Assembly: GCA_963809425.1 (NCBI GenBank) | Contig: CAWEJK010000013.1 | Span: forward strand, 49,359-113,358 | Source: Thermoanaerobaculia bacterium | Lineage (GTDB): Bacteria > Acidobacteriota > Thermoanaerobaculia > UBA5066 | Direction: 5' to 3' | DNA: 64,000 bases | Made by a program: the position numbers and the translations under genes | Shown: in pieces, positions 9,392-48,818 of the stretch | Numbering within the stretch: position 1 is the first letter of the stretch | Layout: the number at the start of each line of letters is the position of its first letter | Notes under the pieces: generated by a model | Database searches by the model: none | What the model was told of the DNA's origin: nothing | What the model saw: only the letters and a program-made list of their open reading frames with translations

Positions 9392-10972
9392 TCAGAACAG
9401 CGAATCTGTCGTGACGAGGTAGATGGGCTTTCCGCCGCGATCGGGAAGCGCAACCTCGAGGCGGAGGATGCGAACGAGAGACGCGCGCGTGAGCTCGACG
9501 AGCATGCCCACGCCGATGTCGCCGCGCCACCCTTCGGTGGACGGCCCGACCCGCGCTCCCCAGGTCTTTCCGACATCGGCGAACCCCGTGAGACCGAGCG
9601 CCGCGATGTGGAGCAGCTCGCCGGTGATGCGATGCCGCCACTCCATGTTGGCCACCACCCGTGAGGTGCCGTCGAAGGTATTGGGGTCGTAGCCGCGCAG
9701 GCCGGCGTCGGCGCCGAGGGTGAGCTGCCTCTCGCGATCGACGGCGTAGCCGAGGTCGGCGGCGACGCGGACCCTCAGGCCCGCCGAACCGGTGATGGCG
9801 CCCCCGGCCTCGAGGTGCGTGATCGCGTTGCCCAGGCCGCGGCTCTCGACTCGTCCCGAGAGGTCGGCGCGCTGCCAGGTGTAGGTCCGCCCCGCGTACT
9901 GGCCCGCTTCGAACGTTCCCCGGTAGCGCAGCCGCACGCTGTCGCCGCCGAAGAACGGCAGCGAGAGTCCGGTCGTGACCTTCCAGTTCGGCCCGAGCGG
10001 CAGGTCCTCCTGCCTGAGCCAGGCGCGGAACCCGCGCACGAGCTTCCAGCGAAACGTCGTGTGCTCCCAGCCCACCTCGCCGCCCACGAGGTTGCGATCC
10101 CGGGGCTGAGGGTAGAGCGAGCCGTCGACGCCATGCCAGTTCCGGAAGAGCGCTCGTTCGCCGAACGCTCCGGCGATGAGACGGTTCGTGCGGATGCCGC
10201 TGCCCGGCAGCCGGAGCCCGCCCCAGACTTCCCAGTCGCGTGTGTTCGCGTCGCCCGTGACACGCCGTTCCCCGTCCGACCAAAGGTACTTCAGGGACTG
10301 ATCCCGCCTCCACTCGACGCCACCGGCTCGCGGCGTCGTCAGGGAGAAAAACGGGTACTCGACCAGAAGGTGGTCCGTCGATCCGTCGGAGGACGACTGG
10401 TGCTCGAGCGCGAGCTGCCAGCGACTGTGGAGGAACGTGAGGTCTTTGTAGCGAAACTTCGTCGAAGTCCGTTCGGGGTCCGACGTGACGTCGAAAAGCA
10501 GGCTCTTCCCCATGCCGAGGACGTTGTCCTCCCAGAGGCCGAAGCCGGCGGTCCTCCGATCCCCGGACATACCGAAGCTGACGGAAATGCCGGTCGTCCA
10601 CTGGTCGTGGGTCTCGACCACCACCTCGGCCCCGCCGGGGACCGGCCGCGCGGAGATGTTCACGGGGTTGAGGAAACCCGTGCCTCGCAAGATGAGCTCG
10701 CTTTCGGCCATTCGCACGGGATCGAGGCGGTCGCCGACCTGGAAGAGCAGCAGGGATCGGATGAAGTCCTCGCGGGTGACGATGTGCAGGGCGTCGACCC
10801 AGCGATAGGGCCACGCCGAGGTGGACGGGTCGTCCAGATCGAAGACGTCGTGCCGGTCGATCCGTACCGCCACGATGGGGGTGCCGGGAGCCACGTTCTC
10901 CTCCGCCGCGCCCGGGCAGGCGAGCGCACAGAGGAAGGCGAGGAGATGCAGCGGTCTGCCCGCGGGCCCCAT
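9392..10972 (-). CDS. Omp85/BamA-family outer-membrane protein (POTRA + surface-antigen barrel)
   Basis: 526-aa ORF with a signal peptide, a POTRA-like N-terminus (IVAVRIDRHDVFD...FQVGDRLDPVRMAESELILRGTGFL) and a beta-barrel ending in F (YLVTTDSLF). Sigma-54-type promoter at 10998-11012. Confidence 0.75.
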   Translation of the reverse strand: MGPAGRPLHLLAFLCALACPGAAEENVAPGTPIVAVRIDRHDVFDLDDPSTSAWPYRWVDALHIVTREDFIRSLLLFQVGDRLDPVRMAESELILRGTGFLNPVNISARPVPGGAEVVVETHDQWTTGISVSFGMSGDRRTAGFGLWEDNVLGMGKSLLFDVTSDPERTSTKFRYKDLTFLHSRWQLALEHQSSSDGSTDHLLVEYPFFSLTTPRAGGVEWRRDQSLKYLWSDGERRVTGDANTRDWEVWGGLRLPGSGIRTNRLIAGAFGERALFRNWHGVDGSLYPQPRDRNLVGGEVGWEHTTFRWKLVRGFRAWLRQEDLPLGPNWKVTTGLSLPFFGGDSVRLRYRGTFEAGQYAGRTYTWQRADLSGRVESRGLGNAITHLEAGGAITGSAGLRVRVAADLGYAVDRERQLTLGADAGLRGYDPNTFDGTSRVVANMEWRHRITGELLHIAALGLTGFADVGKTWGARVGPSTEGWRGDIGVGMLVELTRASLVRILRLEVALPDRGGKPIYLVTTDSLF

Positions 10973-11030: not shown

Positions 11031-11093
11031 TGCCGCGGGCGCCTGCACTCTCCCCCGCTCGGTCAGGCGAGCCCTGAAACAGCCCGCGCACTC

Positions 11094-11108
11094 TGGCAGG
11101 GGAATTGC
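11094..11108 (+). promoter_or_regulatory. sigma-54-type promoter (TGGCAG-gggaa-TTGC)
   Basis: The -12 GC is 30 nt from GTG 11138, with AGGAG in between. Confidence 0.7.
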
Positions 11109-11137
11109 GCTGGGATATCAAGCAGGAGACTCAGAAC

Positions 11138-11683
11138 GTGAAAAAGAACTTTGTTCCAATCCTCGCAGCGGCCCTCTCCCTCACGTGGCTTCTCACCGCG
11201 TCGCCGGCGAGTGCGGCGGGCGAGCGCGAGACGGAGGTCTCCGAGGCGCTCAATGCCACCTCCGTCAGGGCCAAGCTGATCGAAAAGCTCGGCGTCGACG
11301 CCCTTCGCATCAAGGTCTCCGTCTCCGGAGAGACGGCAACCCTGACAGGCGAGGTCGCGAAGTCACCCAGCCAGGGGCTCGCCGAGCAGGTCGCCCTGTC
11401 GGTCGAGGGGATCAAGAAGGTCGACAACAAGGTGACGGTCAAGGACGCCTCTGGTCCGGTGGCCGCCAGCGAAGCCTCGGTGAAGAACGTGGCCCTCGAA
11501 CTGAAGGTCAAGAGCATCCTTCTGGCCGAGATCGGAAAGAACGCGCTCAAGATCGAGGTCGAGGTCGTCGACGGAGTCGTCAGCCTCCGCGGCAAGCTCG
11601 ACAACCCCGATGTCTCCAGGGCCGCAATCGAGAAGACCCGTTCGATCCACGGCGTCAAGAAGGTCATCAACCTTCTCGGCTGA
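11138..11683 (+). CDS. BON-domain protein (OsmY-like, two BON domains)
   Basis: Signal peptide plus two BON repeats (LGVDALRIKVSVSGETATLTGEV...; GKNALKIEVEVVDGVVSLRGKL...). GTG 11138 follows AGGAG at 11124-11128. The ORF is open from 11105. Confidence 0.85.
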   Translation: MKKNFVPILAAALSLTWLLTASPASAAGERETEVSEALNATSVRAKLIEKLGVDALRIKVSVSGETATLTGEVAKSPSQGLAEQVALSVEGIKKVDNKVTVKDASGPVAASEASVKNVALELKVKSILLAEIGKNALKIEVEVVDGVVSLRGKLDNPDVSRAAIEKTRSIHGVKKVINLLG

Positions 11684-11715
11684 GCTCCGCGACTCCGCTC
11701 CCGACTCATCGGTCG

Positions 11716-11735
11716 CCGGACCGTCTCCGGTTTTT
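11716..11735 (+). terminator. candidate intrinsic terminator after the BON gene
   Basis: CCGGA-ccgtc-TCCGG followed by TTTTT. The stem is short. Confidence 0.4.
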
Positions 11736-11770
11736 CCAACGTCCAACAAGAGAAAGAAAGAGGTTTTGAG

Positions 11771-12445
11771 ATGAAAAAGCTGATGACCTGTTTGGCCCTC
11801 GGCGCGTTCGCGACGCTCGTCGGAGTCGCATCCGCGCCCGTCGCATCCGCGCAGACCGAAAAGGAAAACTCGACATTCACCGTGGCGGAGCCGCTCGACG
11901 TCGGGAGCTTCACTCTGCAGCCCGGAACGTACCTCATCAAGGTCGTGGCGCTCACCTCCGACCGCAACGTGATTCAGGTGACGAACCCGGAACAGACGAA
12001 GGTCTTCGCGAACGTCCTCGCGACGCCGCACCCGGTCCGGCCGGGAGAGGAGATCCCCGCGAGCCGCTACACCTACTACGCGACCGAACCGGGCCAGCAC
12101 AGGGCGCTTCGGACGTGGTTCGCGCGCGACACGGCGAACGGCCAGGACATCGTCTATCACAAACAGCGCGCCATGCAGCTCGCCGCGGTCGCCAAGGAGC
12201 CCGTGATCGCGATTCCTGACGCCGTGACGGAGCCGGAATACAAGACCGCGACCCTCACGGTCGTGACGCCGGATCAGAGCATGAAGCCGTACGAAGAGCC
12301 GGCGCCTGCCGCTGTCGTGGCGGAGGCCCGTCCCGCCAAGGAGCTGCCGGCGACCGCGAGCCACGTTCCGCTCTTCGCGGCGCTCGGGCTCCTGTCTCTG
12401 GGCGGCGCTTTCGGACTTCGCGCTCTCACGAACCGGGCGGCGTGA
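11771..12445 (+). CDS. secreted protein with C-terminal sortase sorting signal (LPATAS + TM + basic tail)
   Basis: 224-aa ORF with a signal peptide. It ends KELPATASHVPLFAALGLLSLGGAFGLRALTNRAA. GTGA overlap with the sortase gene. Confidence 0.75.
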   Translation: MKKLMTCLALGAFATLVGVASAPVASAQTEKENSTFTVAEPLDVGSFTLQPGTYLIKVVALTSDRNVIQVTNPEQTKVFANVLATPHPVRPGEEIPASRYTYYATEPGQHRALRTWFARDTANGQDIVYHKQRAMQLAAVAKEPVIAIPDAVTEPEYKTATLTVVTPDQSMKPYEEPAPAAVVAEARPAKELPATASHVPLFAALGLLSLGGAFGLRALTNRAA

Positions 12446-13071
12446 CAGGGTCGCACCTCGTGCGCTGGTTCCGCCGGGCCGAGATCGCCCTCTGCGTGAT
12501 CGGGGTCTCGCTCCTCGGCGGAGCCCTTGGTTCGGTCGTCGGCACTTTGGACTACCAGGCGCGCCAGGGGCGCGCCTTTTCCGACATGGAGCGGGGTGCG
12601 GCCGCGTCGACGCCCGGTCCCGAATCTCCGTCGGCGTCGGCGTCCTCCGTACCGAACACGCGTTCTCTCGACGCCGATCCGCTCGTCCTCGGCCGGATCG
12701 AGATCCCGCGGATCGGCGTCTCCGCGATCGTGCGGGAGGGCGACGACGACACGACGCTCTCCATCGCGGTGGGACACATTCCCGGGACGGCGCGGCCCGG
12801 CGAGCTCGGCAACATGGCGCTCGCGGGGCATCGCGATTCTTTCTTCCGCGCGCTGCGGCACATCCAGGTCCGCGACACGATTCGCATCCGCACGGCCGGC
12901 CGCCGCTACGAGTATCGCGTGGACTCGACCGAGGTGGTCGCGCCGGGGGCGATGCGCGTTCTCGATCCGACGAGCGGCGCCTCCCTCACGCTCGTGACGT
13001 GCTATCCGTTCGGTTACCTGGGGCGCGCGCCGGACCGGTTCATCGTGCGCGCCTCGCAGCTCGTGCCCTGA
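12442..13071 (+). CDS. sortase-family transpeptidase
   Basis: 209-aa ORF with an N-terminal TM anchor, catalytic His region LAGHRDSFF, TLxTC motif (SLTLVTCYPF) and a downstream conserved Arg (PDRFIVRA). Confidence 0.85.
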   Translation: MTGSHLVRWFRRAEIALCVIGVSLLGGALGSVVGTLDYQARQGRAFSDMERGAAASTPGPESPSASASSVPNTRSLDADPLVLGRIEIPRIGVSAIVREGDDDTTLSIAVGHIPGTARPGELGNMALAGHRDSFFRALRHIQVRDTIRIRTAGRRYEYRVDSTEVVAPGAMRVLDPTSGASLTLVTCYPFGYLGRAPDRFIVRASQLVP

Positions 13072-13103
13072 CCTCCGATTCTCCCCGGCTTCGCCCCACT
13101 CTC

Positions 13104-13118
13104 TGGCCTGGAAATTGC
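13104..13118 (+). promoter_or_regulatory. sigma-54-type promoter (TGGCCT-ggaaa-TTGC)
   Basis: The -12 GC is 29 nt from ATG 13147. Confidence 0.65.
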
Positions 13119-13146
13119 GTTTCGAACGCAGGTACCTGAAGAGGAA

Positions 13147-14043
13147 ATGATCAATTACCCACGGTCGAGGCGAGCCCATCTCCGCGTGACGCTCCTGGCC
13201 GGCGCGGTCCTGGCGGCATCGCGCGGGAGCGCGCAGGAGACCGGGCCGCCGATCAGCGCGTCGAGCGCGGACGTACCCGCTCCCCACGAAGTGGCCCGGC
13301 CGTCCAGCCCGCCGTCGTTCCCGAAGATGGTGCTCCTCGACACGGGGCACGTCCTCGGGTCGCCGTTCCGCTGGGGAGGCCGCGAGTGGGCTCTGCTGGC
13401 GGCGTCCACGGCGGCGGTCGCGGCGCTGACGCTGGCGGACAGCGCCGTGAGCGACGCGGCGCGCGAACGCGGGTCCACGCTCGGTTTCTTCGGGGACACG
13501 CTCGAGGGGCTCGGCGACGCCCGCTCGTTCGTGCTCCTCGGAGGGTTCTACCTGGCCGGCGCGATCGGACACGACACGAAGGCGAAGAACGTCTTCTTCG
13601 ACGGACTGTCGGCCAGCCTGATCGCGAGCGGGATGCTCACGCCGGTCCTTTCCACGCTCGTCGGGCGCGAGCGGCCGACGGCGGGACAGGGCGAATATGC
13701 GTTCCATCCGTTCGGAGGACGCTCGTTTCCCTCGGGTCACGCGACCCAGGCGTTTGCCGTCGCATCGGTGATCGCGACGTCCTACGACCAGCTCTGGGTG
13801 AAGGTCACGGCGTACGGAGCGGCCGCGGTGACGGCTTACGTTCGCGTCCAGCGGGGCAAGCACTTCGCGTCGGACGTCGTCGCGAGCGCGGCGATCGGCA
13901 CGCTGGTCGGCCGCTCCGTCGTCCACTTCAACCGAAAGCTTCGCTCGGGACAGAAGGAGCCGGAGAGCGCGGGCGCTCGCCTCACGATCCTTCCCGTTCT
14001 GGGCGGCGGCACGTTCGGTTTTTCCGCGAGTCTCGACTTCTGA
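13147..14043 (+). CDS. PAP2-family (acid/lipid) phosphatase
   Basis: 298-aa ORF carrying the PAP2 motifs GRERP, PSGHA and RVQRGKHFASDV. Sigma-54-type promoter at 13104-13118. Confidence 0.85.
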   Translation: MINYPRSRRAHLRVTLLAGAVLAASRGSAQETGPPISASSADVPAPHEVARPSSPPSFPKMVLLDTGHVLGSPFRWGGREWALLAASTAAVAALTLADSAVSDAARERGSTLGFFGDTLEGLGDARSFVLLGGFYLAGAIGHDTKAKNVFFDGLSASLIASGMLTPVLSTLVGRERPTAGQGEYAFHPFGGRSFPSGHATQAFAVASVIATSYDQLWVKVTAYGAAAVTAYVRVQRGKHFASDVVASAAIGTLVGRSVVHFNRKLRSGQKEPESAGARLTILPVLGGGTFGFSASLDF

Positions 14044-14068
14044 AGGCTGGCCTTCTCGAGGAAGCAAA

Positions 14069-16085
14069 ATGAGTTTCAAGACTCGACAGCGGTATCACGC
14101 ATCCGGATTCGCGTGGCGCGTCGCGATGACCCTCCTCTCGGGAGCGGCCGCCCTTCAGGCGCGTCCGGCCGTGGGGCAGGACACCGGCCGGTGGGAGGTC
14201 GGTGCCTTCGCGGGCGGTTACTTCGGGAGCCGGACCTTCCGGAACCCGAGCACCGACATCGAGATCGGCACATCGGCCGCGTTCGGCCTGCGTGGAGCCT
14301 TCAGCGTCGATCGCACGTTCAGTCTCGAAGTGACCCTGTCGAGGGCCAGCGCCCGCCTCGACGCGGTCGACCCGTCGACGGGCGCCTCCCTCGCGCCGTC
14401 GGCGCCGATCGACGTGAACACCTACGAGCTCAACGGCCTTTACGGATTCGGCACGGGCCGGATGCGCGGCTACATGGGGCTCGGGGTGGGCGCCATGACG
14501 CTTCACCCGTTCGTCCCGGGCGTCGCGACGAAACCGGACACGCGGTTCGTCGCGAACGTCGCGCTCGGCGCCAAGCTCTACCTGAGCGACCGCCTCGCGC
14601 TCCGGGTCGACGGCCGCTATCGCTGGAGAAGCGCCAGCCCGGGGACCAGCACGGTCGTCTGCGGAAGCATCGGCTGCTACGGCTTCACGACGGACCTCTA
14701 CTCGAGCAGCGAAGTCACTGGCGGGCTCGCGTACCGGTTCGGAGGAGCGCGAATCTGGGATCTCCCGGCCGCTCCGGCGACACCGGGCTCCACCGCCGTC
14801 CTCGCGGCGCCGTCGAGGCGCCCGGCGCCGCCGGAGCGTTTCTTCACGGCCGCGGGCGAGGTCGCCCTGGTGGAATTCCTGCCCTGGGCCTATGACCGGT
14901 ACGTCGCGAAGGACGACTTCGCGTTCATCTCCATCGCGAGCGTGAAGGAGAACTTCAAGGACGGCTTCGGCTACGACCGCGACGACTTCAACACGAACCA
15001 GGCGGCGCACCCGTTCCACGGCAGCCTCTACTTCAACGCCGCGAGGTCGAACGGCTACGGCTACTGGGAATCGGGCGCGTTCACGCTGGCGGGCAGCTTT
15101 CTGTGGGAATGCTGCATGGAAAACACCCAGCCTTCGATCAACGACATCGTAAACACCACGTTCGGAGGCATGTCCCGCGGGCGAGATGGCTCACCGCCTC
15201 GGCGTGATGCTCCGCGACAACCAGGCGACTGGCTTCACGCGCTTCTGGCGCGAGCTTGCCGGCGTGGTCGTGGATCCGATGGGGGGGTTCAACCGGCTCG
15301 TGCACGGAGAGATGACGCGGCAGTTCCCGAACCCCGACGAGCGCTTCCCGAGCCGCTTCAGCGTGGTCGGCGATCTCGGCTACCGGCACATCGGCGGCGG
15401 AGTCGCCGATCCGAACCAGGCCGTCATCTCCGTTTCCGCGGTCTACGGCGACGCGTTCGCCGGTGAGATACGCAAACCGTTCGACACGTTCTGGCTCGAG
15501 GCCGACATCAACACGTCGGGAGGCGTGTCGCGGGTCGAGGGACGGGGAGTCCTGAAGGGGTGGGAGCTGGGCGACCCGGCTGCGCGGGCGCGGCACATCC
15601 TCGGCGTCTTTCAGGAGTACGAGTACTTCAACAACGAGTCCCAGGTCTTCGCCGCGCAGATCTTCAGCGTCGGGCTGCTGTCGCGGTACAACCTTCGGCC
15701 GGACCTCAAGGCCAGCACGGACGTCACCGCGATCGCGTTTCCGCTCGCCGGCATCCGGACGACGGACTTCCTGAACCCGGAGACGGGCCGGACCTACGAC
15801 TACGCGCCCGGCGGCGGGTTCCGCGTTGCCGCCCGTCTCTATCGGAGAGAGTGGGAGATCGTCAGGCTCGGCTACGGCGTCGCATACGCTCGCACCGCGA
15901 ACGGGAGCTCCTCCAGCAGCACGCTGCAGTTCTTCCGCGCCTCGGGGCGGGTCCCGCTCACCCGGTCACTGGGCGCTGGAGCCGGCTACTCGTGGTACAG
16001 CCGCAGGACGACTTACTCCGGCGGCTTCCAGGAAGCTCCCAAGACGCAGTCCGAGTGGCGCGTCTTCGCGAGCTGGAGCCTTTAG
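14069..16085 (+). pseudogene. outer-membrane beta-barrel domain + DUF3943-like protein, one frameshift
   Basis: 14069-~15180 continues in a second frame (15186-16085): ...INDIVNTTFGGMSRG / EMAHRLGVMLRDNQATGF... The shift lies in the GGG run at 15179-15181, so it may be an assembly artefact. Confidence 0.7.
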
Positions 16086-16191
16086 AAAGCCTCTCGTGAG
16101 CCATCTGCCTCGAATCGGCATGTTTTTCTGAGGAAACCGGCAAACGCTTCCGAAGGCGCCCGATCCGCCTCGATCAGGTGCACGCGATGTT

Positions 16192-16207
16192 TGGCACCCT
16201 TGTTGCA
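16192..16207 (+). promoter_or_regulatory. sigma-54 promoter, perfect consensus (TGGCAC-ccttg-TTGCA)
   Basis: Exact match to TGGCAC-N5-TTGCA. The -12 GC (16205-16206) is 67 nt upstream of ATG 16273. Confidence 0.75.
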
Positions 16208-16272
16208 CCGTCGACCAAAGAACCGGTTGAAGTGGCGGCAGTCCGGACCCGTTCCCCTCCCACTTCAGCGCG

Positions 16273-19221
16273 ATGAACGGAGGCCACATCTCCTCGAGTC
16301 AAAAGGTCGCCGTGGAAGCGTCCGGCGGCAACCAGGCCATCCGGCACGCGGAAGCTCTGCTCAGGACCGGGGCCCTGCAGAGCGCGATCTTCAACAGCGC
16401 GAACTTCTCGAGCATCGCGACCGACGCGAAGGGCGTCATCCAGATCTTCAACGTCGGCGCCGAGCGGATGCTGGGCTACGCGGCCGCCGACGTCGTGAAC
16501 AAGATCACGCCGGCCGACATCTCGGATCCGCAGGAAGTGATCGCGCGCGCCAAGGCGCTGAGCGTCGAGCTCGGCACGCCGATCACGCCGGGCTTCGAGG
16601 CCCTGGTCTTCAAGGCGTCGCGCGGCATCGAGGACATCTACGAGCTGACCTACATCCGCAAGGACGGGAGCCGGTTCCCCGCGGTCGTGTCCGTCACGGC
16701 GCTGCGCGACGCGCAGGACGCCATCATCGGCTACCTGCTGATCGGCACCGACAACACCGCGCGCAAGCAGGCGGAAGAGGCGCTGCTCAAGGCGGGCGCC
16801 CTGCAGAGCGCGATCTTCAACAGCGCCAACTTCTCGAGCATCGCGACCGACGCGAAGGGCGTCATCCAGATCTTCAACGTCGGCGCCGAGCGGATGCTGG
16901 GCTACGCGGCCGCCGAGGTGATGAACAAGATCACGCCGGCCGACATCTCCGATCCGCAGGAAGTGATCGCGCGCGCCAAGGCGCTGAGCGTCGAGCTCGG
17001 CACGCCGATCGCGCCGGGGTTCGAGGCCCTGGTCTTCAAGGCCTCGCGCGGGATCGAGGACATCTACGAGCTGACCTACATCCGCAAGGACGGGAGCCGC
17101 TTCCCGGCGGTGGTGTCGGTCACGGCGCTGCGCGACGCGCAGGACGCCATCATCGGCTACCTGCTGATCGGCACCGACAACACCGCGCGCAAGCAGGTCG
17201 AAGAGGAGCGGAAGAAGCTCGATCAGCGGCTGCGCGACCAGCACTTCTACACGCGCTCGCTCATCGAATCCAACATCGACGCGCTGATGACCACCGATCC
17301 GCGCGGCATCATCACCGACGTCAACAAGCAGACGGAGGCGCTGACCGGGATGCACGCGCGACGAGCTGATCGGCGCGCCGTTCAAGAACTACTTCACCGA
17401 TCCGGACCGGGCCGAGGCGGGCATCAACCGCGTGCTGAGCGAAGGCAAGGTCACCAACTACGAGCTCACCGCGCGCGCCCGGGACGGCACGCTCACCGTG
17501 GTGTCGTACAACGCGACCACCTTCCACGACCGCGACCGGAGCCTGCAGGGCGTGTTCGCCGCGGCGCGCGACGTGACGGAGCTGAAGCGCTTCGAGCAGA
17601 CGCTGCAGCAGAAGAACGTCGAGCTGGAAGACGCGAGCCGCATGAAGTCCGAGTTCCTCGCCAACATGTCGCACGAGCTGCGGACGCCGCTGAACGCCAT
17701 CATCGGCTTCTCCGAGGTGCTCAGGGACGGCCTGATGGGCGAGCTGACCGATCAGCAGCGCGGGTTCATCGGCGACATCTTCAGCAGCGGCAAGCATCTG
17801 CTCTCGCTGATCAACGACATCCTCGACCTGTCCAAGGTGGAAGCCGGCAAGATGACGCTCGACCTCGAGCCGGTGCAGGTGTCCTCGCTGTTCGCGAACA
17901 GCCTGTCCATCATCAGGGAGAAGGCCGCGGCCCGCCAGCATCCGCCTCGCGGTGGATGCCGCCGAGGAGCTGGGCTCGATTCAGGCGGACGCGCGCAAGG
18001 TCAAGCAGATCGTCTACAACCTGCTCTCCAACGCGGTCAAGTTCACCGGCGAGGGCGGCCACGTGACCCTGCGCGCCGGCCGCGTCCCGCGCGCGCGAGG
18101 TCGGCCAGCTGTCCGGCTCCTGGCCGGGCCGGAGCTTCCCGCTGGCCGAGAACGAGTTCGCGGAGTTTCTCGAGATCAGCGTCACCGACAACGGCATCGG
18201 CATCTCGCCCGAGGAGCTGGAGCGCCTGTTCAAGCCTTTCAGTCAGATCGACAGCGGCCTGGCGCGAAAGTTCGAGGGCACGGGACTCGGCCTGGCCATG
18301 GTCAAGCTCCTCGCCGAGCTGCACGGCGGCACGGTGGCGGTGGAGAGCGCCGTGGGCGAGGGCTCCTGCTTCACGGTCTGGCTGCCGCTCCGGGCGACCG
18401 GGGACGGACGCTCACGCTCGGCCAAGGCGCCGGCCGCTCCACGGATCGAGGCGCCGGCGGGAGCGCGCACCGCGCTGGTGGTGGAAGACGACTTCAAGTC
18501 CGCCGAGCTGATCCGCGTGCAGCTCGAGGCGGAGGGCTTCCAGGTGCTGCACGCCGCCTCCGCCGAGGCCGCGCTGGTCCTCGCGGTGCAGCAGCCGGTC
18601 GTCGCTGATCACCCTCGACATCCTGCTGCCCGACATGGACGGCTGGGAATTCCTCGAGCCGCATCAAGCAGGTGCCGGCGCTCAGGCGCATCCCGGTCGT
18701 GATCATCTCGATCGTGGCCGATCGCAACAAGGGCTTCGCGCTCGGCGCCGCGGCGGTCATGCAGAAGCCGATCTCCCGGCAGGAGCTGTACGAGTCGCTC
18801 GTCGATCTCGGCCTGCTTCCCGTCTCGCCAGGGCCGGCCGCTCAAGGTCCTCGTGGTCGACGACGATCCCAAGGCGGTCGAGCTGATCGCCGTCCGCATC
18901 ACGGGCCTCGCCAGCACCGTGCTGCGCGCCTACGGCGGCCGCGAGGCGATCGAAGCCGCGCGGCGGGAGCTGCCGGACCTGATCGTGCTCGATCTGATGA
19001 TGCCGGACGTGAACGGCTTCGACGTGGTGGAGGCGCTCAACGGACGCCCCGACACGGCGCGGATTCCGATCCTGGTGGTCACCGCCAAGCAGATCACCGC
19101 CGAGGACCGCGCCAGGCTGAACGGCTACGTGACGGCGATCATGGAAAAGGCCGACTTCGACCGCGACCGCTTCACGGCCGAGGTCCGGCGGGCCATGTCG
19201 GGGCGCCAGCTGGCCGCCTGA
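16273..19221 (+). pseudogene. PAS-PAS-PAS-HisKA-HATPase-REC-REC hybrid histidine kinase with ~6 frameshifts
   Basis: Contiguous domains are spread over alternating frames. PAS x2: 16369-17220. Third PAS after the shift near 17350. HisKA ([21 protein letters not shown]). Further shifts near 17935, 18090, 18600, 18660 and 18830. HATPase ([26 protein letters not shown]...[18 protein letters not shown]). Two REC domains. Stop at 19219-19221. Confidence 0.8.
16369..17220 (+). repeat. tandem duplication, 2 x 426 bp (one complete PAS domain each), near-identical
   Basis: 16369-16794 and 16795-17220 encode 142-aa units (GALQSAIFNSANFSSIATDAKGVIQIFNVGAERMLGY...LLIGTDNTARKQ). They differ at only a few nucleotides. 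Confidence 0.9.
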
Positions 19222-19222
19222 G

Positions 19223-19595
19223 ATGGCCAAGAGTCCTGATCGTCGAGGACAACCCCGCCAACATGACGCTGGCGGTCTTCCTGCTGCAGTCGGCGGGCCA
19301 CGACGGTGCTCAGCGCCAGCGGATGCCGAGGCCGGGCTGACGCTGGCGCGCGACGAGCAGCCCGACCTGATCCTGATGGACATCCAGCTCCCCGGCATGG
19401 ACGGCCTCGCAGGCCACCGCGCTGCTCAAGAAGGACGATGCGACGCGCGCCATCCCGGTGATCGCCCTGACCGCGCTGGCGATGAAGGGCGACGAGGAGC
19501 GCATTCGAGCCGCGGGCTGCGACGGCTACATCGCCAAGCCGATGCGCTATCAGGAATTTCTCGCGACCGTCGCGGCACAGCTGGCGCGCACATGA
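19223..19595 (+). pseudogene. single-domain response regulator (REC) with ~3 frameshifts
   Basis: The pieces RVLIVEDNPANMTLAVFLLQSAGH / DAEAGLTLARDEQPDLILMDIQLPGMDGLA / TALLKKDDATRAIPVIALTALAMKGDEERIRAAGCDGYIAKP lie in three frames. The terminal TGA overlaps the next ATG (19592-19595). Confidence 0.7.
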
Positions 19596-21601
19596 GCGTC
19601 GCGCCTCCGATGCCCCCGACGAGCCGGCGGCACGACCTGCCCGAGCACCAGGCGCGCGTGCTGATCGTGGACGACGAAGCGAAAAACAGAAAGCTCCTGG
19701 AGGTCATGCTCGCGCCGGAAGGATTTCTGATCCAGAGCGCCTCGAGCGGCGAGGAGGCGCTCGCCATCGTGGCGAAGCAACCGCCGGACCTCATCCTCCT
19801 CGACATCATGATGCCCGGCATGGACGGCTACGAGGTGGCAGGCCGAATCAAAGCCGACCCCACGACGAAGAACATTCCCATCATCATCGTCACCGCCCTG
19901 GACGATCGGGACGCCATGCTGCTCGGTCTGAGAGCCGGAGCCGAGGACTTTCTCACGAAGCCGGTGGATCGTGCCGAGCTGCGTGTGCGCGTGCGGAACC
20001 TTCTGCGCCTCAAGGCCTACGGCGACTACTACGACACGTACAGCCGGAAGCTCGAAGGCGAGGTGGGCTCGCGCACGGCCGACCTCGTCGAGAGTCTGCG
20101 TCTCTACCGATCGACGTTCGAGGCGGCGCCCGTCGGGATCGTGCACGTGGGTCTGGACGGCCGCTGGCTGCGCGTCAACCAGCGCCTGTGCGATCTCCTG
20201 GGATACGCGCGCGAGGAGCTGCTGACTGTTGCGATTCAGGAGAGCGTGCAGGGGCAGGAAGTGGACGGCGAGGACGCATGGTCCCGTCAGATGGCCGTGG
20301 GACCGCTGGACCGCCACGCGGCCGACGAAAAGCAATACCGGCGGAGAGACGGCACGTTCGTGCATGTCCGGGTCAACACGTCCGTCCATCGCGACGCGGA
20401 GGATCTGTCCCGGTTCTTCATCTCCGTCGTCGAGGACGTCACGGAGCAGCGACTCCTCGAGGCGCAGATCCAGCAAGCAGGCAAGATGGATGCGATCGGG
20501 CGCCTGGCCTCCGGCGTCGCGCACGATTTCAACAACCTTCTGACGGTGATTCTCGGCTTCGCGGCGATCGTGAACGAAGACGTCGCGATCGCCGAGAAGC
20601 ATGGAGGGGATCTCGGCGAGATCATCAAGGCCGCCGAGCGCGCCGCGGGTCTCACGAAACAGCTTCTCGCCTTCAGCCGCGAGCAGGTCCTGCACACCGC
20701 GCCGCTCGACGCGAACGGGCTCATCACGGACATGTCCGGAATGCTGAGGATGCTGATCGGCGAGAACATCACCGTCGCCCTTTCGCTGGCCCCCGATCTT
20801 CCCCTGGCGCTCGCGGACCGGGGCCAGATCGAGCAGGTCGTGATGAACCTCGTCGTCAATGCGAGAGACGCGATGCCCGACGGCGGAAAATTGACGATCG
20901 AAACGGCGGACGTCGAGCTGGGCTCCGCCTCCATTCTCAAGCGGGAGGTCGTTCCGGGGCACTACGTGATGCTCGCGATCACGGACACCGGCAGCGGAAT
21001 GACGAAGGAAACGCAGCGGCGGCTGTTCGAGCCGTTCTTCACGACCAAGGGAACGGGAAAGGGCACCGGGCTCGGCCTCTCGACGACGTACGGCATCGTC
21101 AAGCAGAGCAAGGGCCATATCTGGGTGTACAGCGAACCCGGTCTCGGGTCGACGTTCAAGGTCTACCTGCCCCGCGCGGATCGCGACGCTCCTCTGGTAT
21201 CCGTCAGCCCGCTCGTCGCCGCCGTCAAACCGGCCACCGAGACCATTCTCCTCGTCGACGACGATGCCGGCGTGCGCCAGCTCTCGAAGCGGATCCTCGA
21301 AAGAGTCGGCTATCGGGTTCTGGAGGCGTCGAACGGGAACGACGCCGAGAAACTATTCGGAACCCAGGCCGACGCGATCGATCTGCTCGTGACGGACATG
21401 ATCATGCCGGGCTGCGGCGGCCCCGAGCTGCTGAAACGACTTCGCGTTCGGGCACCCGCGCTCCGGGCGCTGTACATGTCCGGCTACACCGAACAATCCG
21501 CGGTGGACCAGACCGGAATCGATCATGGCCTCCCGTTCGTCCAGAAGCCCTTCACGGCTGCAGTGTTCGCGCAGCAGGTGCGCGGGGCCCTGGATCGCTG
21601 A
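19592..21601 (+). CDS. hybrid histidine kinase (REC-PAS-HisKA-HATPase-REC), intact
   Basis: 669 aa from ATG 19592. REC (RVLIVDDEAKNRKLL...DIMMPGMDGYEV), PAS, H-box (LASGVAHDFNNLLTVILGF), HATPase (ITDTGSGMTKETQRRLFEPFFTTK, GTGLGLSTTYGIV), C-terminal REC. Confidence 0.9.
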   Translation: MSVAPPMPPTSRRHDLPEHQARVLIVDDEAKNRKLLEVMLAPEGFLIQSASSGEEALAIVAKQPPDLILLDIMMPGMDGYEVAGRIKADPTTKNIPIIIVTALDDRDAMLLGLRAGAEDFLTKPVDRAELRVRVRNLLRLKAYGDYYDTYSRKLEGEVGSRTADLVESLRLYRSTFEAAPVGIVHVGLDGRWLRVNQRLCDLLGYAREELLTVAIQESVQGQEVDGEDAWSRQMAVGPLDRHAADEKQYRRRDGTFVHVRVNTSVHRDAEDLSRFFISVVEDVTEQRLLEAQIQQAGKMDAIGRLASGVAHDFNNLLTVILGFAAIVNEDVAIAEKHGGDLGEIIKAAERAAGLTKQLLAFSREQVLHTAPLDANGLITDMSGMLRMLIGENITVALSLAPDLPLALADRGQIEQVVMNLVVNARDAMPDGGKLTIETADVELGSASILKREVVPGHYVMLAITDTGSGMTKETQRRLFEPFFTTKGTGKGTGLGLSTTYGIVKQSKGHIWVYSEPGLGSTFKVYLPRADRDAPLVSVSPLVAAVKPATETILLVDDDAGVRQLSKRILERVGYRVLEASNGNDAEKLFGTQADAIDLLVTDMIMPGCGGPELLKRLRVRAPALRALYMSGYTEQSAVDQTGIDHGLPFVQKPFTAAVFAQQVRGALDR

Positions 21602-28617: not shown

Positions 28618-29729
28618 ATGACCGAAACGACAAAGGCGAAGCTGGCGGAAGTCGCTGTGCTCGAGGGAAATACGTACGAGGCCAGGGCCTACGCCGCCTC
28701 GAGCGCGAGATCGCCTCTCGCTCCGGCGACGATCCGGCGCCGCACGCCGGGGCCGCAGGACGTGCAGATCGACGTGCTCTTCTGCGGGATCTGCCACTCG
28801 GACCTGCACACGGTCCGGAACGAGTGGCAGAAGGTCCTGCCGACCGTCTATCCCTGCGTCGCGGGCCACGAGATCGTCGGCCGGGTGACGCACGCGGGCA
28901 GCGCCGTTCGCAAGTTCAAGGAAGGCGACCTGGCCGGGGTGGGCTGCCTGGTCGACTCGTGCCGCGCCTGCTCCGCGTGCCGGGACGGGCAGGAGCAGTT
29001 CTGTGAAGGACCGGCGACCTTCACCTACAACTCCCCCGACAAGCATCTCGGCGGCGTCACCTACGGCGGTTACTCCGAGAGCCTCGTCGTGGACGAGGCC
29101 TTCGCCCTGCGGGTGTCGGACCGCCTGGACCCGGCCGGGGCGGCGCCGCTTCTGTGCGCCGGCATCACGACCTATTCGCCGCTCAAGCACTGGAACGTCC
29201 GGAAGGGGCAGAAGGTGGGCGTCGTCGGCCTCGGCGGACTCGGGCACATGGCCGTCAAGCTCGCGAACGCGTTCGGCGCCCAGGTCGTCGTGTTCACGAC
29301 GTCGGCCGGCAAGGCGGACGATGCGGTCCGGCTGGGCGCCCACGACGTGGTGATCTCCAGGAACGCCCCGGAGATGCAGAAGCACCTCGGCAGCTTCGAC
29401 TTCATTCTCGACACCGTCTCGGCCGAGCACGACGTGAACGCCTACCTCGACCTGTTGAAGCGGGACGGCACCCTGACGCTGGTCGGAGCACCCGAGACTC
29501 CCCTGCCGGTCGGGGTCTTCAGCCTCATTTTCGGGCGGAGGCGCCTCGCGGGCTCGCTCATCGGCGGCATCCCGGAGACCCAGGAGATGCTGGACTTCTG
29601 CGCGGAGCACGGGATCACGTCCGACGTCGAGGTCATTCCGATCCAGAAGATCAACGAGGCCTACGACCGCATGGTGAAGAGCGACGTGAAATACCGCTTC
29701 GTCATCGACATGGCCTCGCTGAAGCAGGA

Positions 29730-29736
<7 letters not shown>
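28618..29736 (+). CDS. zinc-dependent NAD(P) alcohol dehydrogenase (YahK/cinnamyl-ADH type)
   Basis: ATG 28618 follows GGGAGG. GICHSDLH, GHEIVG, CRACSACRDGQEQFC and GLGGLGHMAVKLA motifs. The ORF is open from 28564. Confidence 0.9.
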
Positions 29737-32669
<2,933 letters not shown>

Positions 32670-32702: not shown

Positions 32703-33179
32703 TCAGCCCCGCCGCGCTGCCTCGATGGTGGCGACGTCGATCTTCTTCATCGGCATCATCGCCTCGAAGGCACGCTTTGCCTCGGCGCCGCCAGCCGCAA
32801 GCGCGTCGGTCAGAACGCGCGGGGTAATCTGCCACGACAGGCCCCAGCGGTCCTTGCACCAACCGCACTGGCTCTCCTCGCCGCCATTGCGGACGATCGC
32901 ATTCCAGTAACGATCCGTCTCTGCCTGATCGTCCGTCGCGATCTGGAAGGAAAACGCTTCGCTGTGCTCGAACGTCGGGCCGCCGTTGAGACCGAGACAG
33001 GGAATGCCCAGAACGGTGAACTCCACCGTCAGCACGTCGCCCTCCTTGCCTCCCGGGTAGTCACCCGGCGCCTTATGAACGGCAGTCACTTGACTATCCG
33101 GAAACGTGGCGGCATAGAAGCGCGCCGCCTCCTCCGCGTCCTTGTCGAACCAGAGGCAGATCGTGTTCTTTGCCTTCAT
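32703..33179 (-). CDS. PhnB-like VOC protein (3-demethylubiquinone-9 3-methyltransferase-domain family)
   Basis: 158-aa ORF, MKAKNTICLWFDKDAEEAARFYAATFPDS...QCGWCKDRWGLSWQI, diagnostic of this family. Confidence 0.85.
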   Translation of the reverse strand: MKAKNTICLWFDKDAEEAARFYAATFPDSQVTAVHKAPGDYPGGKEGDVLTVEFTVLGIPCLGLNGGPTFEHSEAFSFQIATDDQAETDRYWNAIVRNGGEESQCGWCKDRWGLSWQITPRVLTDALAAGGAEAKRAFEAMMPMKKIDVATIEAARRG

Positions 33180-33253
33180 ATCTGTCGCTCCTTCTGCTCC
33201 GAGACCGTGCCCCGCGTTTCACGGGCTCGAATCCGTTTCGATTGTGAGCTAAA

Positions 33254-33297
33254 TGGTCGGGACTGTGGGATTCGAACCCACGACCCCTTGAACCCCA
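33254..33297 (-). repeat. duplicate of the 3' 44 nt of tRNA-Pro (putative att direct repeat)
   Basis: tggtcgggacTgtgggattcgaacccacgaccccttgaacccca is identical to 36138-36181 except for one base (33264 t vs 36148 g), in the same orientation. No matching 5' acceptor half is present, so it is not a functional tRNA. Confidence 0.85.
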
Positions 33298-36137
33298 CGG
33301 TGAAAACGGCCGTTTAGTGCCCTCGGGAGCCTCGCGGGTAACTGGGTCGAGGGGTCGCCCTGTGGGTTACAAGCCACTCCGCCAGAATGAGTTCCAGTTC
33401 TCGCCTCCCCACTCCAGAGGGGTCTCCCTGGATACCGGCGGACACCGATGGGTCCGCCGATGTGGCCCAAAGTGTGGCCATCGGACGCCCCGTCGGTTCC
33501 CTGCATCTCACGTCCTTGACGGTTCACCGGTCGATCGGCGCCCGCCGTCGCGTCCGGTGCGTCACTTCAAAGAAATGTGTCGGGACTCTCGTCCACTTCC
33601 CGACGTTTTGTCCTAAGACCTCTTCGTGACCGATCTCGAGCTTCGAGCGGCCGTTAGTTCGCTCGGTGTCTTTCGCCCAGGCGAGCTCGAGGCGACGGCG
33701 CGTTACTTCCACCCCGGCGTCCAACTCCCGCCGGGCAGCCCGGGAATGTCGATCTTCCCCGCGCCCCGTCCGTAATCCATGATGGGGGTCAGGTTGGCGC
33801 CGTTCTCCAATGACACCGACCCGGTCACGCCCACGGCCCCCTTCGCGATGCCGGAGTTGCCGCTGGCCGCCACGGTGCTGGTGAGGCTCACATCCTGCAG
33901 TCCGCCCGCATCACTGGCTCGGATGCCGATCATGATTTCGGCGGTGATGCTGGCTCCGGCCGACATCCCCGGCGGCGTCCACCCGTTCTTGCTCTCTCCC
34001 AGACCCTTTCCGCTGCCCAGGTCGATGCCCGCCCCGACGCTGGCGCCGACGCCGATATGGGCGGCGGATTCCTTCTTCACGAAGTTCCGCTCGAACTTGA
34101 ACCGGAGCACTTCGCCGCCGGAGATGGAGAACTTATCGCAGCCCAGCGAGAAACTCAGCGCGCCGGCGCCCAGCTTCAACGGCGGATTCAGCGGGCAATC
34201 CGCCTTGGACTTCTTCAGGTCCGGATCCTTGGCCGTCTTCGGCGGCGCGGGCGGCGGAGGCTCCACGCACTTCATGTCCCTCAGGCTCTTGCCCAGGTTG
34301 GCCAGCGATGAACCCTGTCCGGCGGCCTGCTGATAGAGGCTCAACACCACCAACTCCCGTTGCGCCTCCATCAAGTCATGCAGGGCTGGGACCCAGATCT
34401 GCTCGAAGTAAGGATCGGAGAACGCGTAGAGGTCGCGCGCCGAAACGCGCAGCGAGTCCGAGAATTGCTTCCACACCTTGTACTGCTGTGCGTACAGCAA
34501 CTCCGTCGCGCTCTTGGCCTGCTTGCACGCGAGATAGGCGCGCTCGTTCAACTCCCGCTCCAGGGGATCGATTTCCTTGCGGAGTTGCTGGCCGCAGGCC
34601 TCCACGCAGGGGCCCAGGCAACTGCTTTTGCTGCCACACTTGCCCGGACATCCTTCGACGCAGGCCAGGCTCCGCTCCTGCGCCTTCAGTACCTCGTCCA
34701 TCTGCTTCAGGCTCTTCTCCGCGGCGATGCCTGCCTGCCCGGCCGCCTGTTCCATCGTGGGTTCAATTACCTTGGCGGCGCCTTGCCACTGCTCGGCGGA
34801 CAGCTTGACCGTCTGCGCGACGGTCAGTTCGACAATCTCGCCGAACATGAACACCTGCTTGTCGAAGAGCCGCGGCAGATCGATGGTCCCGTCCGGGTTC
34901 TCCCGTCTGCGCCGCTCGATGGCCATCAGGCGGCCAAACGCCTCCCGTGCCTTCTCGTACGCCGCCGGAACGTGCTCATTGGTAAACTGCAGCGCGTGCT
35001 CGAATGCCTCCTCCGACGCCGCGGTGACCGACGGCGTCTCCGACACCGGCAGCTCAGGAACCGGGCCTGAGTCCGGATCCTTGTCGGGAGCCCCCGCGTC
35101 GTACTTGTCTTCGTGCTGGGTCTGCTCCTTCGCCTTGCGGTAGCCCGCCGCCACCAGGCCCGAGTAGCTCTTGCTCAGCGACCGTCGAAACTGGATCAGC
35201 GCCGTGGCCTGATCGCCCCGGCAACTCGCCAGCAGCCCCAGCCCCGCATAGGAGCCGGCCAGATCAGGCGCGAGCTGCGAGGCCTCCTGAAAGTGTTTCT
35301 GCGCCAGTGGCGCGTTGCCCGCGTTGTAGTAGGCCCAGGCGAGGTTCAACGCGGCCAGCCCCGACGTAGGGTTCATGTAGCGCGCGTACAGCAGCACCTT
35401 CGTGGCGGCCGCCGAGTCCGGAATGGTGTCCAGCGCGACGCCGAGGTTGCCCGCGGCCTGCACGTCAGCCGGGTTCTTCTGGACAGCCAGCGCGCTGGTG
35501 TAGACCGACGCCGATGCGGCGCCGCTCACAAAGAGAGCCCCGGCGATGCCCGACGTGTTGCTCTCCTTGCCAACAGCCGCGTCCACGACGTTCTTGCCGG
35601 GACCGAGTCGCGTGCCATAGGTGCTCACCAAGGACTTGATCAGCGCGGCGAACTCCTGCGGGGTCGGTGCGGCGGTCGCCACTGCTGCCGGCTTGGCGGT
35701 AGGGCAGGGGAGGGACGTCGTCCCTGCCCCGGCGGTGGAGCCGAAGCTCTGGGCGGAGGCGGACAGGCCAGAAAGAAGCGCAAAGGCCACAACGAAGTGG
35801 GTGGCAGGCATGCCTGCATCTTGTGACCAGGATGGCCGAATGACAACCTCCGACGGCTCTGATGGCTGGCCGTATGGCGATACTCAGACGGTCGTGATGA
35901 AGAATAGAGAACTGCGATCCACGAGGAAGAGCGTAGAGTTCTACTCAGGCGACCTCAAGAGATTGTGATCTCGTCCGATGCGATGGCGACGCTCGCTTCG
36001 CTCGGGCCGCGCCGGTAAACCGGCTGACATTAGTCGGGGGTCCGCTCGCGACGCTCGCTGCCCCCGTGCCCCCGGTCGCGCGTTCGAATCGACTCTGCGA
36101 GCAAATCGCGCGCCGGAGCGCTCGAGAATGACTCATA
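33298..36137. mobile_element. putative integrase-less genomic islet bounded by tRNA-Pro 3'-end direct repeats
   Basis: Bracketed by the 44-nt repeats. Contains one large ORF with visibly AT-richer codon usage, plus about 400-bp and 325-bp noncoding flanks. No recombinase is detectable in any frame. Confidence 0.45.
33703..35811 (-). CDS. 702-aa secreted orphan protein (TPR-like N-terminus, Cys-cluster middle, Gly-rich beta-like C-terminus)
   Basis: Long unbroken ORF. Signal peptide MPATHFVVAFALLSGLSASAQS. TPR-like LNLAWAYYNAGNAPLAQKHFQEASQLAP. Cys cluster CVEGCPGKCGSKSSCLGPCVEACG. C-terminus GVGASVGAGIDLGSGKGLG...GVTGSVSLENG. No family recognised. Confidence 0.75.
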   Translation of the reverse strand: MPATHFVVAFALLSGLSASAQSFGSTAGAGTTSLPCPTAKPAAVATAAPTPQEFAALIKSLVSTYGTRLGPGKNVVDAAVGKESNTSGIAGALFVSGAASASVYTSALAVQKNPADVQAAGNLGVALDTIPDSAAATKVLLYARYMNPTSGLAALNLAWAYYNAGNAPLAQKHFQEASQLAPDLAGSYAGLGLLASCRGDQATALIQFRRSLSKSYSGLVAAGYRKAKEQTQHEDKYDAGAPDKDPDSGPVPELPVSETPSVTAASEEAFEHALQFTNEHVPAAYEKAREAFGRLMAIERRRRENPDGTIDLPRLFDKQVFMFGEIVELTVAQTVKLSAEQWQGAAKVIEPTMEQAAGQAGIAAEKSLKQMDEVLKAQERSLACVEGCPGKCGSKSSCLGPCVEACGQQLRKEIDPLERELNERAYLACKQAKSATELLYAQQYKVWKQFSDSLRVSARDLYAFSDPYFEQIWVPALHDLMEAQRELVVLSLYQQAAGQGSSLANLGKSLRDMKCVEPPPPAPPKTAKDPDLKKSKADCPLNPPLKLGAGALSFSLGCDKFSISGGEVLRFKFERNFVKKESAAHIGVGASVGAGIDLGSGKGLGESKNGWTPPGMSAGASITAEIMIGIRASDAGGLQDVSLTSTVAASGNSGIAKGAVGVTGSVSLENGANLTPIMDYGRGAGKIDIPGLPGGSWTPGWK

Positions 36138-36214
36138 TGGTCGGGACGGTGGGATTCGAACCCACGACCCCTTGAACCCCATTCAAGTACGCTACCAGGC
36201 TGCGCCACGTCCCG
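36138..36214 (-). tRNA. tRNA-Pro (anticodon GGG)
   Basis: Manual cloverleaf: acceptor CGGGACG/CGTCCCG, D arm GCGC-AGCCTGGTA-GCGT, anticodon arm CTTGA-ATGGGGT-TCAAG, T arm GTGGG-TTCGAAT-CCCAC, discriminator A, encoded CCA. Confidence 0.9.
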
Positions 36215-48624: not shown

Positions 48625-48818
48625 GTCCGCCTCCGCGGTTCGGTGTGCGGACCCGCACCGTCGCCGTTTTCGTCGGCGATGTCGGGCCAGAAAAGCTGTT
48701 CCTTGGTCTTCTCGAGGTCGCGGAACTGTCCTCTGCGGACGCCCCACGCCCAGGCGAGGGCGCCGGCGATCCCCATCGAGATGCCGGCGGCGAACAACAT
48801 GACCGTGATGGTCATCAT
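48621..48818 (-). CDS. second CcoS/FixS-like small membrane protein (65 aa), first gene of the operon
   Basis: MMTITVMLFAAGISMGIAGALAWAWGVRRGQFRDLEKTKEQLFWPD fits the FixS pattern. Confidence 0.6.
   Translation of the reverse strand: MMTITVMLFAAGISMGIAGALAWAWGVRRGQFRDLEKTKEQLFWPDIADENGDGAGPHTEPRRRT

Follow-up and report, generated by a model that had tools for sequence, protein, structure and literature searches.

A probable integrase-less islet at the 3' end of tRNA-Pro(GGG) in a Thermoanaerobaculia bacterium, with one secreted protein as its cargo

A tRNA gene whose 3' half recurs a short distance away, with one gene in between, raises two questions: how did the interval come to be there, and what does its gene encode? 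We addressed both for positions 33253 to 36181 of a 64-kb stretch of contig CAWEJK010000013.1 (assembly GCA_963809425.1) from a Thermoanaerobaculia bacterium of the phylum Acidobacteriota; this whole stretch of 64,000 nucleotides (nt) is called the window throughout. The original prediction had taken the repeat for an attachment site (att) duplication around an integrase-less islet carrying a single secreted orphan protein, in an effector- or toxin-like arrangement. By our analysis, the interval is probably a small element that integrated at the tRNA-Pro(GGG) 3' end, with a foreign cargo gene and without an integrase, either decayed or dependent on functions supplied in trans, in the manner of cis-mobilizable elements (CIMEs). 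It is made up of the following features.

36138-36214, minus strand: intact tRNA-Pro(GGG) with encoded CCA, the putative integration target (ARAGORN; Rfam RF00005, 60.8 bits)
36137-36181, minus strand: attL-side core, 45 nt, from U33 of the anticodon loop to CCA plus 1 nt (direct repeat D1, exact comparison, and alignment with the repeat of L011, a relative described below)
33253-33297, minus strand: attR-side displaced tRNA-Pro 3' fragment, 45 nt, 1 mismatch (repeat finder and direct comparison)
33298-36136, no strand: islet interior, 2,839 bp, GC 65.4%, one gene, no recombinase
33703-35811, minus strand: cargo gene, 702 amino acids (aa), a secreted protein with tetratricopeptide repeats (TPR), a helical stalk, and a beta domain (open reading frame [ORF], homologues, and codon statistics)
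33298-33702, no strand: noncoding arm adjoining the displaced fragment, 405 bp, GC 64% (no coding potential)
35812-36136, no strand: noncoding arm from the tRNA to the gene start, 325 bp, GC 61%

The attL-side core is the 3' part of the functional tRNA-Pro (the final 44 nt of the gene and one base of the flank), and the two 45-nt copies lie in the same orientation, 2,884 bp apart, with a single mismatch (T at 33264 versus G at 36148). Direct comparison confirmed the 44-nt, one-mismatch recurrence given by the original prediction and extended it by the flanking base. A 41-nt pattern allowing up to 3 mismatches hit just two sites in the 64 kb, with zero expected from shuffled sequence, and no third, more degenerate tRNA-Pro fragment was found anywhere in the window. 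Read on the tRNA strand, the mismatch changes an acceptor-stem C to A and would break the pair, so that the displaced copy could not fold as tRNA-Pro does; it is not a functional RNA, and Rfam gave only a partial match to it, below threshold. As in islands of the Islander type, then, an intact target tRNA and a displaced 3' fragment in direct orientation bound the islet. Regenerated tRNA-gene DNA and a displaced fragment mark island ends in general (PMC4383910, PMC9897764); the repeat pair in the window fits this rule, and the att reading is therefore consistent with it. On the tRNA's 3' side, just past the core, 33238-33252 and 36122-36136 are weakly similar (9/16 matches), which may reflect an attP from a related tRNA-Pro locus or chance.

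The same tRNA gene was then compared among relatives, found in a genome collection through the DsbD_2 gene that adjoins it. These were the Thermoanaerobaculia metagenome-assembled genomes L010 and L011 (JBGASW010000001.1), with DsbD_2 identities of 79% and 82%, and a third, L013, with 51%. The right flank of the islet (36.3 to 46 kb of the window: DsbD_2, a P-type ATPase, a FixG-like ferredoxin, a pyridine-nucleotide oxidoreductase, and further genes) is colinear in L010 and L011 at 79 to 90% aa identity and in L013 at 51 to 78%. No tRNA was found at the L013 locus. Both L010 and L011 carry tRNA-Pro(GGG) immediately after DsbD_2; the window tRNA is identical to that of L011 and differs from that of L010 by one compensated T-stem pair. 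An island of 8.9 kb (11155 to 20016; whole element, 11075 to 20064) comes after the L011 tRNA and closes in a 48-nt stretch that repeats part of this tRNA perfectly, starting at A32 in the anticodon loop and stopping 3 nt beyond CCA. This island encodes a Phage_integrase protein (tyrosine integrase, 12664 to 13920; E = 1.7 × 10−22), a serine resolvase, a helix-turn-helix protein, a DnaB_C/AAA_25 protein, and a SIR2_2 protein that is possible defence cargo, and GCGTCAC motifs are repeated near both of its ends. Because the DNA after the L011 repeat resembles the DNA after the L010 tRNA (77% identity over 204 nt), L010 is the empty site and L011 the filled site. The window repeat starts one base later than that of L011 (U33) and ends two bases earlier (45 versus 48 nt). 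This match of limits is the strongest evidence that the displaced copy in the window is an att remnant, left by site-specific recombination at an attB that is live in this lineage.

The codons of the cargo gene point in the same direction. Its GC content (0.663; z = −0.55) and its GC content at third codon positions (GC3; 0.853; z = −0.41) lie inside the distribution of 44 window genes, and the visibly AT-richer codon usage noted in the original prediction did not hold in that respect; what stood was an atypical choice among synonymous codons. By Kullback-Leibler divergence (KL) from the pooled window genes, the cargo gene (0.103) ranked 2nd of the 18 genes with at least 400 codons, with 16 of the 17 others at 0.024 to 0.066. 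Leu is encoded by CTG in 64% and by CTC in 20% of cases, whereas host genes use 28% and 60% (CTG:CTC of 42:13 versus 243:546; Fisher P = 2.7 × 10−11). The cargo gene likewise favours GTG, ACC, and GAT, where the host favours GTC, ACG, and GAC (Fisher P of about 10−3 for each pair). Core genes of L010 and L011 follow the host pattern. At native loci of the cargo's family (L001, L003, L004, and L007; GC 59 to 64%), both the family genes and their neighbours show the cargo-like pattern. Codon choice that is that of the native family loci and opposite to that of the host argues for horizontal acquisition; the gene came from a lineage with a CTG-type preference and has not yet been ameliorated. The foreign cargo composition of Islander-type islands is thus present in codon choice, though not in GC or GC3. 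Taken together, the filled and empty sites at the same tRNA in relatives, repeat limits within 1 to 3 nt of those of the L011 island, and donor-like codons support the att duplication of the original prediction well.

No recombinase was found between the repeats, as had been predicted. The only ORF with coding potential in the interval is the 702-aa gene on the minus strand, Pfam searches of six-frame translations of both arms returned no family at E ≤ 10, and tblastn with the L011 integrase gave as its best window match a stretch of the left arm (33414-33617) at chance level (E of 0.24 to 0.36). This stretch was rejected as an integrase remnant on its E values; in addition, it does not conserve the catalytic R/H/Y residues, and the space between the match and the repeat is too short for the 326 N-terminal residues that are missing. 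The same tblastn search found no recombinase elsewhere in the 64 kb, nor did the 25 Pfam families found most often in the 55 other window genes include one, a check that is not exhaustive. The islet therefore differs from Islander-type islands in that no gene for a tyrosine integrase lies within it. After slow decay, fragments should still be recognisable, and none are present. With a single mismatch in 45 nt and no integrase pseudogene debris, the sequence seems to speak against slow decay and to fit better with clean deletion or mobilisation in trans.

The remainder of the interior is noncoding, in arms whose measured lengths (405 and 325 bp) agree with the approximately 400 and 325 bp first estimated. 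Rfam returned nothing over the islet besides the tRNA, and no sigma-70-like promoter was found in the arm 35812-36136, where the promoter and terminator scan was uninformative. The arm 33298-33702 had no match in the homologue loci or elsewhere in the window, both arms matched nothing when compared with the homologue loci at the DNA level, and arm-type motifs common to the two were no more frequent than chance. The tRNA-side arm holds a 12-nt direct repeat, GCGACGCTCGCT, at 35986-35997 and 36048-36059 (28 nt at 79% when extended), which lies 80 to 150 nt from the tRNA 3' end.

We propose the following history. An element with a tyrosine integrase would have recombined with tRNA-Pro somewhere in the stretch from the anticodon loop to the 3' end, as happened with the L011 island, leaving a regenerated tRNA end on the attL side and displacing the original tRNA end to the attR side. 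Its recombination module would then have been lost by clean deletion, or else the element would always have lacked an integrase and been moved in trans by a related one; either route would yield an element of the CIME type. The cargo gene would have been imported from outside the lineage, keeping the CTG/GTG/ACC/GAT preference of lower-GC (59 to 64%) genomes.

Several observations weigh against so simple a history. The genes of the window's left flank, encoding an ABC1 kinase (31281-32669) and a PF06983 protein (32703-33179), are absent downstream of the tRNA in L010 and L011. In a metagenome scan for PF06983, none of the 80 best (84 to 92% identity) of at least 599 matching stretches had a tRNA-Pro or an ABC1 neighbour. 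An empty-site allele of the window islet, with 33253 joined to 36138, did not turn up among L010, L011, or the 80 metagenome loci, because no relative has synteny over the left flank. The tRNA-Pro is thus a synteny breakpoint among the three relatives, more than one event may lie behind the DNA left of the repeat, and a more complex history, such as accretion or rearrangement at tRNA-Pro, is possible. The islet arms share nothing with the L011 island and no arm-type motif with each other, which leaves the islet without a direct tie to a known integrase. Finally, GC and GC3 do not set the cargo gene apart.

The rival that survives best builds on some of these points: the islet would be the stump of a tandem array or larger island, formed as several elements accreted at tRNA-Pro; recombination or deletion would later have removed the integrase-bearing parts and replaced the ancestral downstream flank, and the left flank would be former island DNA. 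This would account for a left flank that is not syntenic with L010 and L011 beside a right flank that is. It also draws on the atypical codons of the PF06983 gene (KL 0.155, GC3 0.80) and its 84 to 92% identity to copies on many unrelated soil contigs, as well as on the aldo/keto-reductase fragment and poorly coding DNA at 29.7 to 31.3 kb. Tandem accretion at att sites is, moreover, a documented route to CIMEs (PMC5704250). Against it, there is no additional tRNA-Pro fragment in the 64 kb, no recombinase in the top 25 Pfam families of the 55 other genes or by tblastn, and the ABC1 kinase gene has host-like codons. We therefore consider the stump unlikely, although it deserves some weight, and retain the small integrated element as the better account.

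Four further observations concern the surroundings of the islet. The PF06983 gene (3-dmu-9_3-mt/PhnB-like; minus strand), which lies just outside the repeat, is very conserved and possibly itself mobile. About 2 kb left of the islet, 29700-31300 has poor coding potential and overlapping ORFs, among them an AraC-type helix-turn-helix ORF (29947-30762) and a short C-terminal aldo/keto-reductase fragment (30978-31170), and looks like pseudogene debris. The most atypical long gene in the window encodes a 597-aa PAS-domain protein (16273-18066, plus strand; KL 0.171, GC3 0.75, CTG preferring) and may be another horizontal acquisition. A 95-nt tRNA-Glu(TTC) called by ARAGORN at 48632-48726 (plus strand) went unreported by Rfam, overlaps opposite-strand ORFs of good coding potential, and is probably a false positive.

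What, then, does the islet carry? The 702-aa product is divided as follows.

35749-35811, minus strand: predicted Sec signal peptide, aa 1 to 21, ending in LSASA before Q (sequence reading and alignment with homologue signal peptides)
35107-35664, minus strand: TPR domain, aa ~50 to 235 (TPR_12, PDB sequence match, model, and Foldseek)
34276-35034, minus strand: helical stalk, aa 260 to 512, with helices of 38, 73, 75, and 38 residues (AlphaFold model)
34594-34662, minus strand: six-Cys cluster CVEGCPGKCGSKSSCLGPCVEAC, aa 384 to 406, at the hairpin tip (position and alignment)
33763-34179, minus strand: C-terminal beta domain, aa 545 to 683, nine strands, 20% Gly (model with predicted local distance difference test [pLDDT] of 77 to 90 outside one loop; alignment A5)

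The protein is not the orphan it had been taken for. A word-indexed search returned 17 full-length homologues at 36 to 64% identity, with none above 64% in a collection of 15 billion proteins, and an exhaustive profile search returned 93 clusters (50% identity) at E < 10−30; a second word-indexed search, made with the family profile, added no further homologues. About 100 cluster representatives have the non-TPR part in common, and the architecture is conserved. The closest homologue is L003 (207-2214), with 72.7% nt identity over 2,037 nt and 64% protein identity. At L003:137-2216, this homologue is called as two genes (242 and 447 aa) owing to a run of N (a scaffold gap) and not to a true frameshift. 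The window and L003 proteins are without an N-terminal segment of ~60 to 80 residues that is present in the sixteen other aligned homologues. Searches of curated libraries (Pfam, NCBIfam, and PDB sequences for the protein, and Pfam for 47 relatives) found TPR repeats only, and in this sense the original statement that the architecture fits no family stands for curated libraries; as to uniqueness, it is superseded by the 93 clusters.

The domain reading of the original prediction fared well. The N terminus looks like a signal peptide and aligns with those of homologues, and the model has a low-confidence helix there. The TPR-like N-terminal third is real: Pfam TPR_12 matched below its cutoff (E = 1.2 × 10−4), consensus TPR proteins among PDB sequences matched at E = 1.7 × 10−16, the model has helical repeats, Foldseek retrieves TPR proteins, and TPR_2 was found in 32 of 47 relatives (E ≤ 0.01). 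This evidence places the region among tandem 34-residue helix-turn-helix repeats. An acidic, Pro-containing linker follows, joining the TPR domain to the stalk. The full-length AlphaFold model was mediocre (pLDDT 63), whereas aa 250 to 702, modelled with a 47-sequence alignment, reached pLDDT 85. In this model (pLDDT mostly 90 to 98), the stalk is an antiparallel hairpin of ~110 Å on a four-helix base. The dense Cys cluster of the original prediction is indeed present; it is not a free-standing motif, being an expanded form of the CGxxxxC tip loop of most family members (wider-family consensus CGxxxAC) that was seen only in the window protein and the L003 homologue (P0005). A Pro-rich linker with conserved Cys515 and Cys539 leads to the beta domain, which contains conserved Cys558. 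The Gly-rich, beta-like C terminus was borne out by the Gly content and the nine modelled strands, and the Gly-rich stretch DLGSGKGLG proved to be a subfamily-specific loop insertion. Altogether there are 12 Cys, an even number, of which C429, C515, C539, and C558 are invariant in an 18-sequence alignment and C36 and C197 nearly so, as would suit an extracytoplasmic, disulfide-bonded protein.

Searches for relatives of the C-terminal 450 residues returned no Pfam family and no PDB fold match. With the full-length model, Foldseek was swamped by TPR proteins; with aa 250 to 702, the best PDB match had E = 7.7 × 10−3 and TMq was ≤0.25 among the matches listed, all of them generic coiled coils, and there was no significant match in BFVD (TM 0.09 to 0.24; root mean square deviation >15 Å). 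A beta-domain profile found no relative among PDB sequences. An outer-membrane beta-barrel or autotransporter anchor found no support either: no Pfam or NCBIfam outer membrane protein family was present in 47 members, and the C termini are mostly K or variable, without the outer-membrane-type aromatic pattern. The cargo family is uncharacterised yet not unique, and its C-terminal module has no known fold relative.

Gene neighbourhoods of the homologues bear on their role. In contigs from peat and soil, the family occurs in ordinary chromosomal settings, often as two or three tandem paralogues. An OmpA-domain gene stands directly upstream, sometimes with another downstream, in L007-9, L170, and L171, and nearby in L003 and L004-6; tandem paralogues occur in the L007-9, L170, and L171 groups. 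At L007:5921-18141, L170:308-7242, and L171:3158-11039, the paralogues are interleaved with small genes (~160 to 255 aa) and OmpA-domain genes, an arrangement that may represent a cluster of envelope genes that is conserved. In the loci examined, the family was not accompanied by secretion-system, immunity-like, or toxin-associated genes. Given the recurrent OmpA-domain neighbours, the tandem copies, and the lack of toxin partners, an envelope role is more likely than an effector or toxin role. Locus L001 has a peculiarity of its own, with 73-nt direct repeats (9591-9663 and 12273-12345; 89% identical) flanking the homologue ~240 bp from a tRNA-Val(TAC). They hold a hairpin, CCAGGTCTC...GAGACCTGG, and a 16-nt core occurs four times in L001 7000-14500. 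We rejected these repeats as a second islet at tRNA-Val, because they are a dispersed hairpin repeat in several copies, resembling repetitive extragenic palindromic (REP) sequences or miniature inverted-repeat transposable elements (MITEs), and because there is no tRNA-Val fragment.

From these neighbourhoods and the architecture, a more specific role can tentatively be drawn, to which we give somewhat less than an even chance: the protein may be a cell-envelope scaffold that works with OmpA-type peptidoglycan-binding partners. After export by Sec, the N-terminal TPR platform would bind partners, the ~110 Å helical hairpin would be stiffened by its disulfide-stapled tip and followed by a small Gly/Ser/Ala-rich beta domain, and in native settings the protein would act together with OmpA-type peptidoglycan-binding proteins. 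Against this, the evidence comes from gene neighbourhoods in other genomes and from architecture; no OmpA gene adjoins the family in the window, in L001, or on the P0004 contig; and the strands of the beta domain alternate Ser/Thr/Gly with hydrophobic residues, which would also suit a membrane-inserting hairpin.

This last feature leads to the effector- or toxin-like role of the original prediction, in which the helical bundle and amphipathic beta hairpins would insert as in a pore-forming toxin and the islet would be a minimal one serving fitness or virulence. The presence of one secreted cargo on an islet at a tRNA, the ~110 Å hairpin, strands that alternate small or polar with hydrophobic residues, and weak Foldseek matches that include MakA and Tc-toxin chains would all suit such a protein. 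Nevertheless, the comparison with ClyA/MakA-type toxins gave E = 0.087 and TMq of 0.16 to 0.17 for MakA (7p3r) and nothing at E ≤ 0.001, and no fold match of any kind was significant. Nor was there any toxin or defence match in Pfam, NCBIfam, PHROGs, or PADLOC (the last two matched nothing in the 702-aa protein), or any family relative on viral contigs. The homologues sit in housekeeping-type contexts, in tandem with OmpA-domain genes and without immunity-like or secretion partners. The toxin reading consequently lost its footing, and we hold it to be improbable. A bolder version of the islet's story, to which we attach a slim chance, is that the protein represents an undescribed class of envelope-spanning or membrane-inserting Acidobacteriota proteins, with a new fold in the stalk-plus-beta module, carried in this genome as the sole cargo of an att-flanked element moved in trans. 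If so, the tRNA site would be home to a natural cassette system of one gene, served by tRNA-Pro-specific integrases such as that of L011.

That the 45-nt copy is instead a partial duplicate of the tRNA gene, made by chance or by replication, beside an old resident gene is highly improbable: the host-like GC and GC3, the lack of an integrase and of an empty-site allele for the window islet, and the weak 9/16-nt similarity past the core would allow it, but zero matches are expected by chance, the repeat limits match those of the proven L011 island repeat at the same tRNA, the codon choice is foreign (P = 3 × 10−11), and nothing in the 15-billion-protein collection is homologous to the gene at more than 64% identity, its relatives being in lower-GC genomes.

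Returning to the islet as a small integrated element, we compared it with known systems. CIMEs were defined for streptococcal systems comprising integrative and conjugative elements (ICEs) as well as integrative and mobilizable elements (IMEs) (PMC5704250). Like them, the islet keeps attL and attR at a tRNA 3' end and has no genes for integration or transfer, and an integrase-bearing element in a relative, L011, uses the same att core. It differs in having no sequence in common with this candidate helper island, in its phylum (Acidobacteriota, class Thermoanaerobaculia), and in standing at the small end, with 2.8 kb and one gene. By analogy, the islet might be mobilised in cis by an incoming element. 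Islands of the Islander type have a regenerated tRNA and a displaced 3' fragment at their ends, as here, and the ~45-nt repeat is of the same size as the 44-bp repeats of PYG1 from Pyrococcus yayanosii (PMC9897764). They are found through a tyrosine integrase gene and are usually at least 9 kb, whereas the islet lacks an integrase and measures 2.8 kb (PMC4383910). With the L011 island, the islet has in common an identical target tRNA and nearly the same repeat limits (48 versus 45 nt). It has none of that island's integrase, resolvase, DnaB-like/AAA_25 and SIR2_2 genes or GCGTCAC end motifs, the two are dissimilar at the DNA level, and the 702-aa gene is without a homologue on the island.

For the protein, the nearest comparison is CpoB/YbgF of the Tol-Pal system, a Sec-exported periplasmic protein with a coiled coil and TPR that is encoded beside Pal, a peptidoglycan-binding protein of the OmpA family. 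The list of parts is similar, but the window protein is TPR-first (the order is reversed), is almost three times larger, and possesses a beta domain and a Cys-stapled hairpin in addition. No YbgF match was found in NCBIfam or Pfam, and there were no tol genes in the loci examined.

Integrase-less, att-flanked tRNA islets are of a well-known kind, and the arrangement at this tRNA-Pro is ordinary. What the locus adds is a live attB, documented as filled, as empty, and as a remnant, in Thermoanaerobaculia, a class that has been little studied. The protein family is the more useful product, with ~90 to 100 clusters, one architecture, and a confident predicted structure for the C-terminal 450 residues. 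Should the family turn out to belong to the envelope, a small gap in the biology of acidobacterial cell envelopes would be closed.

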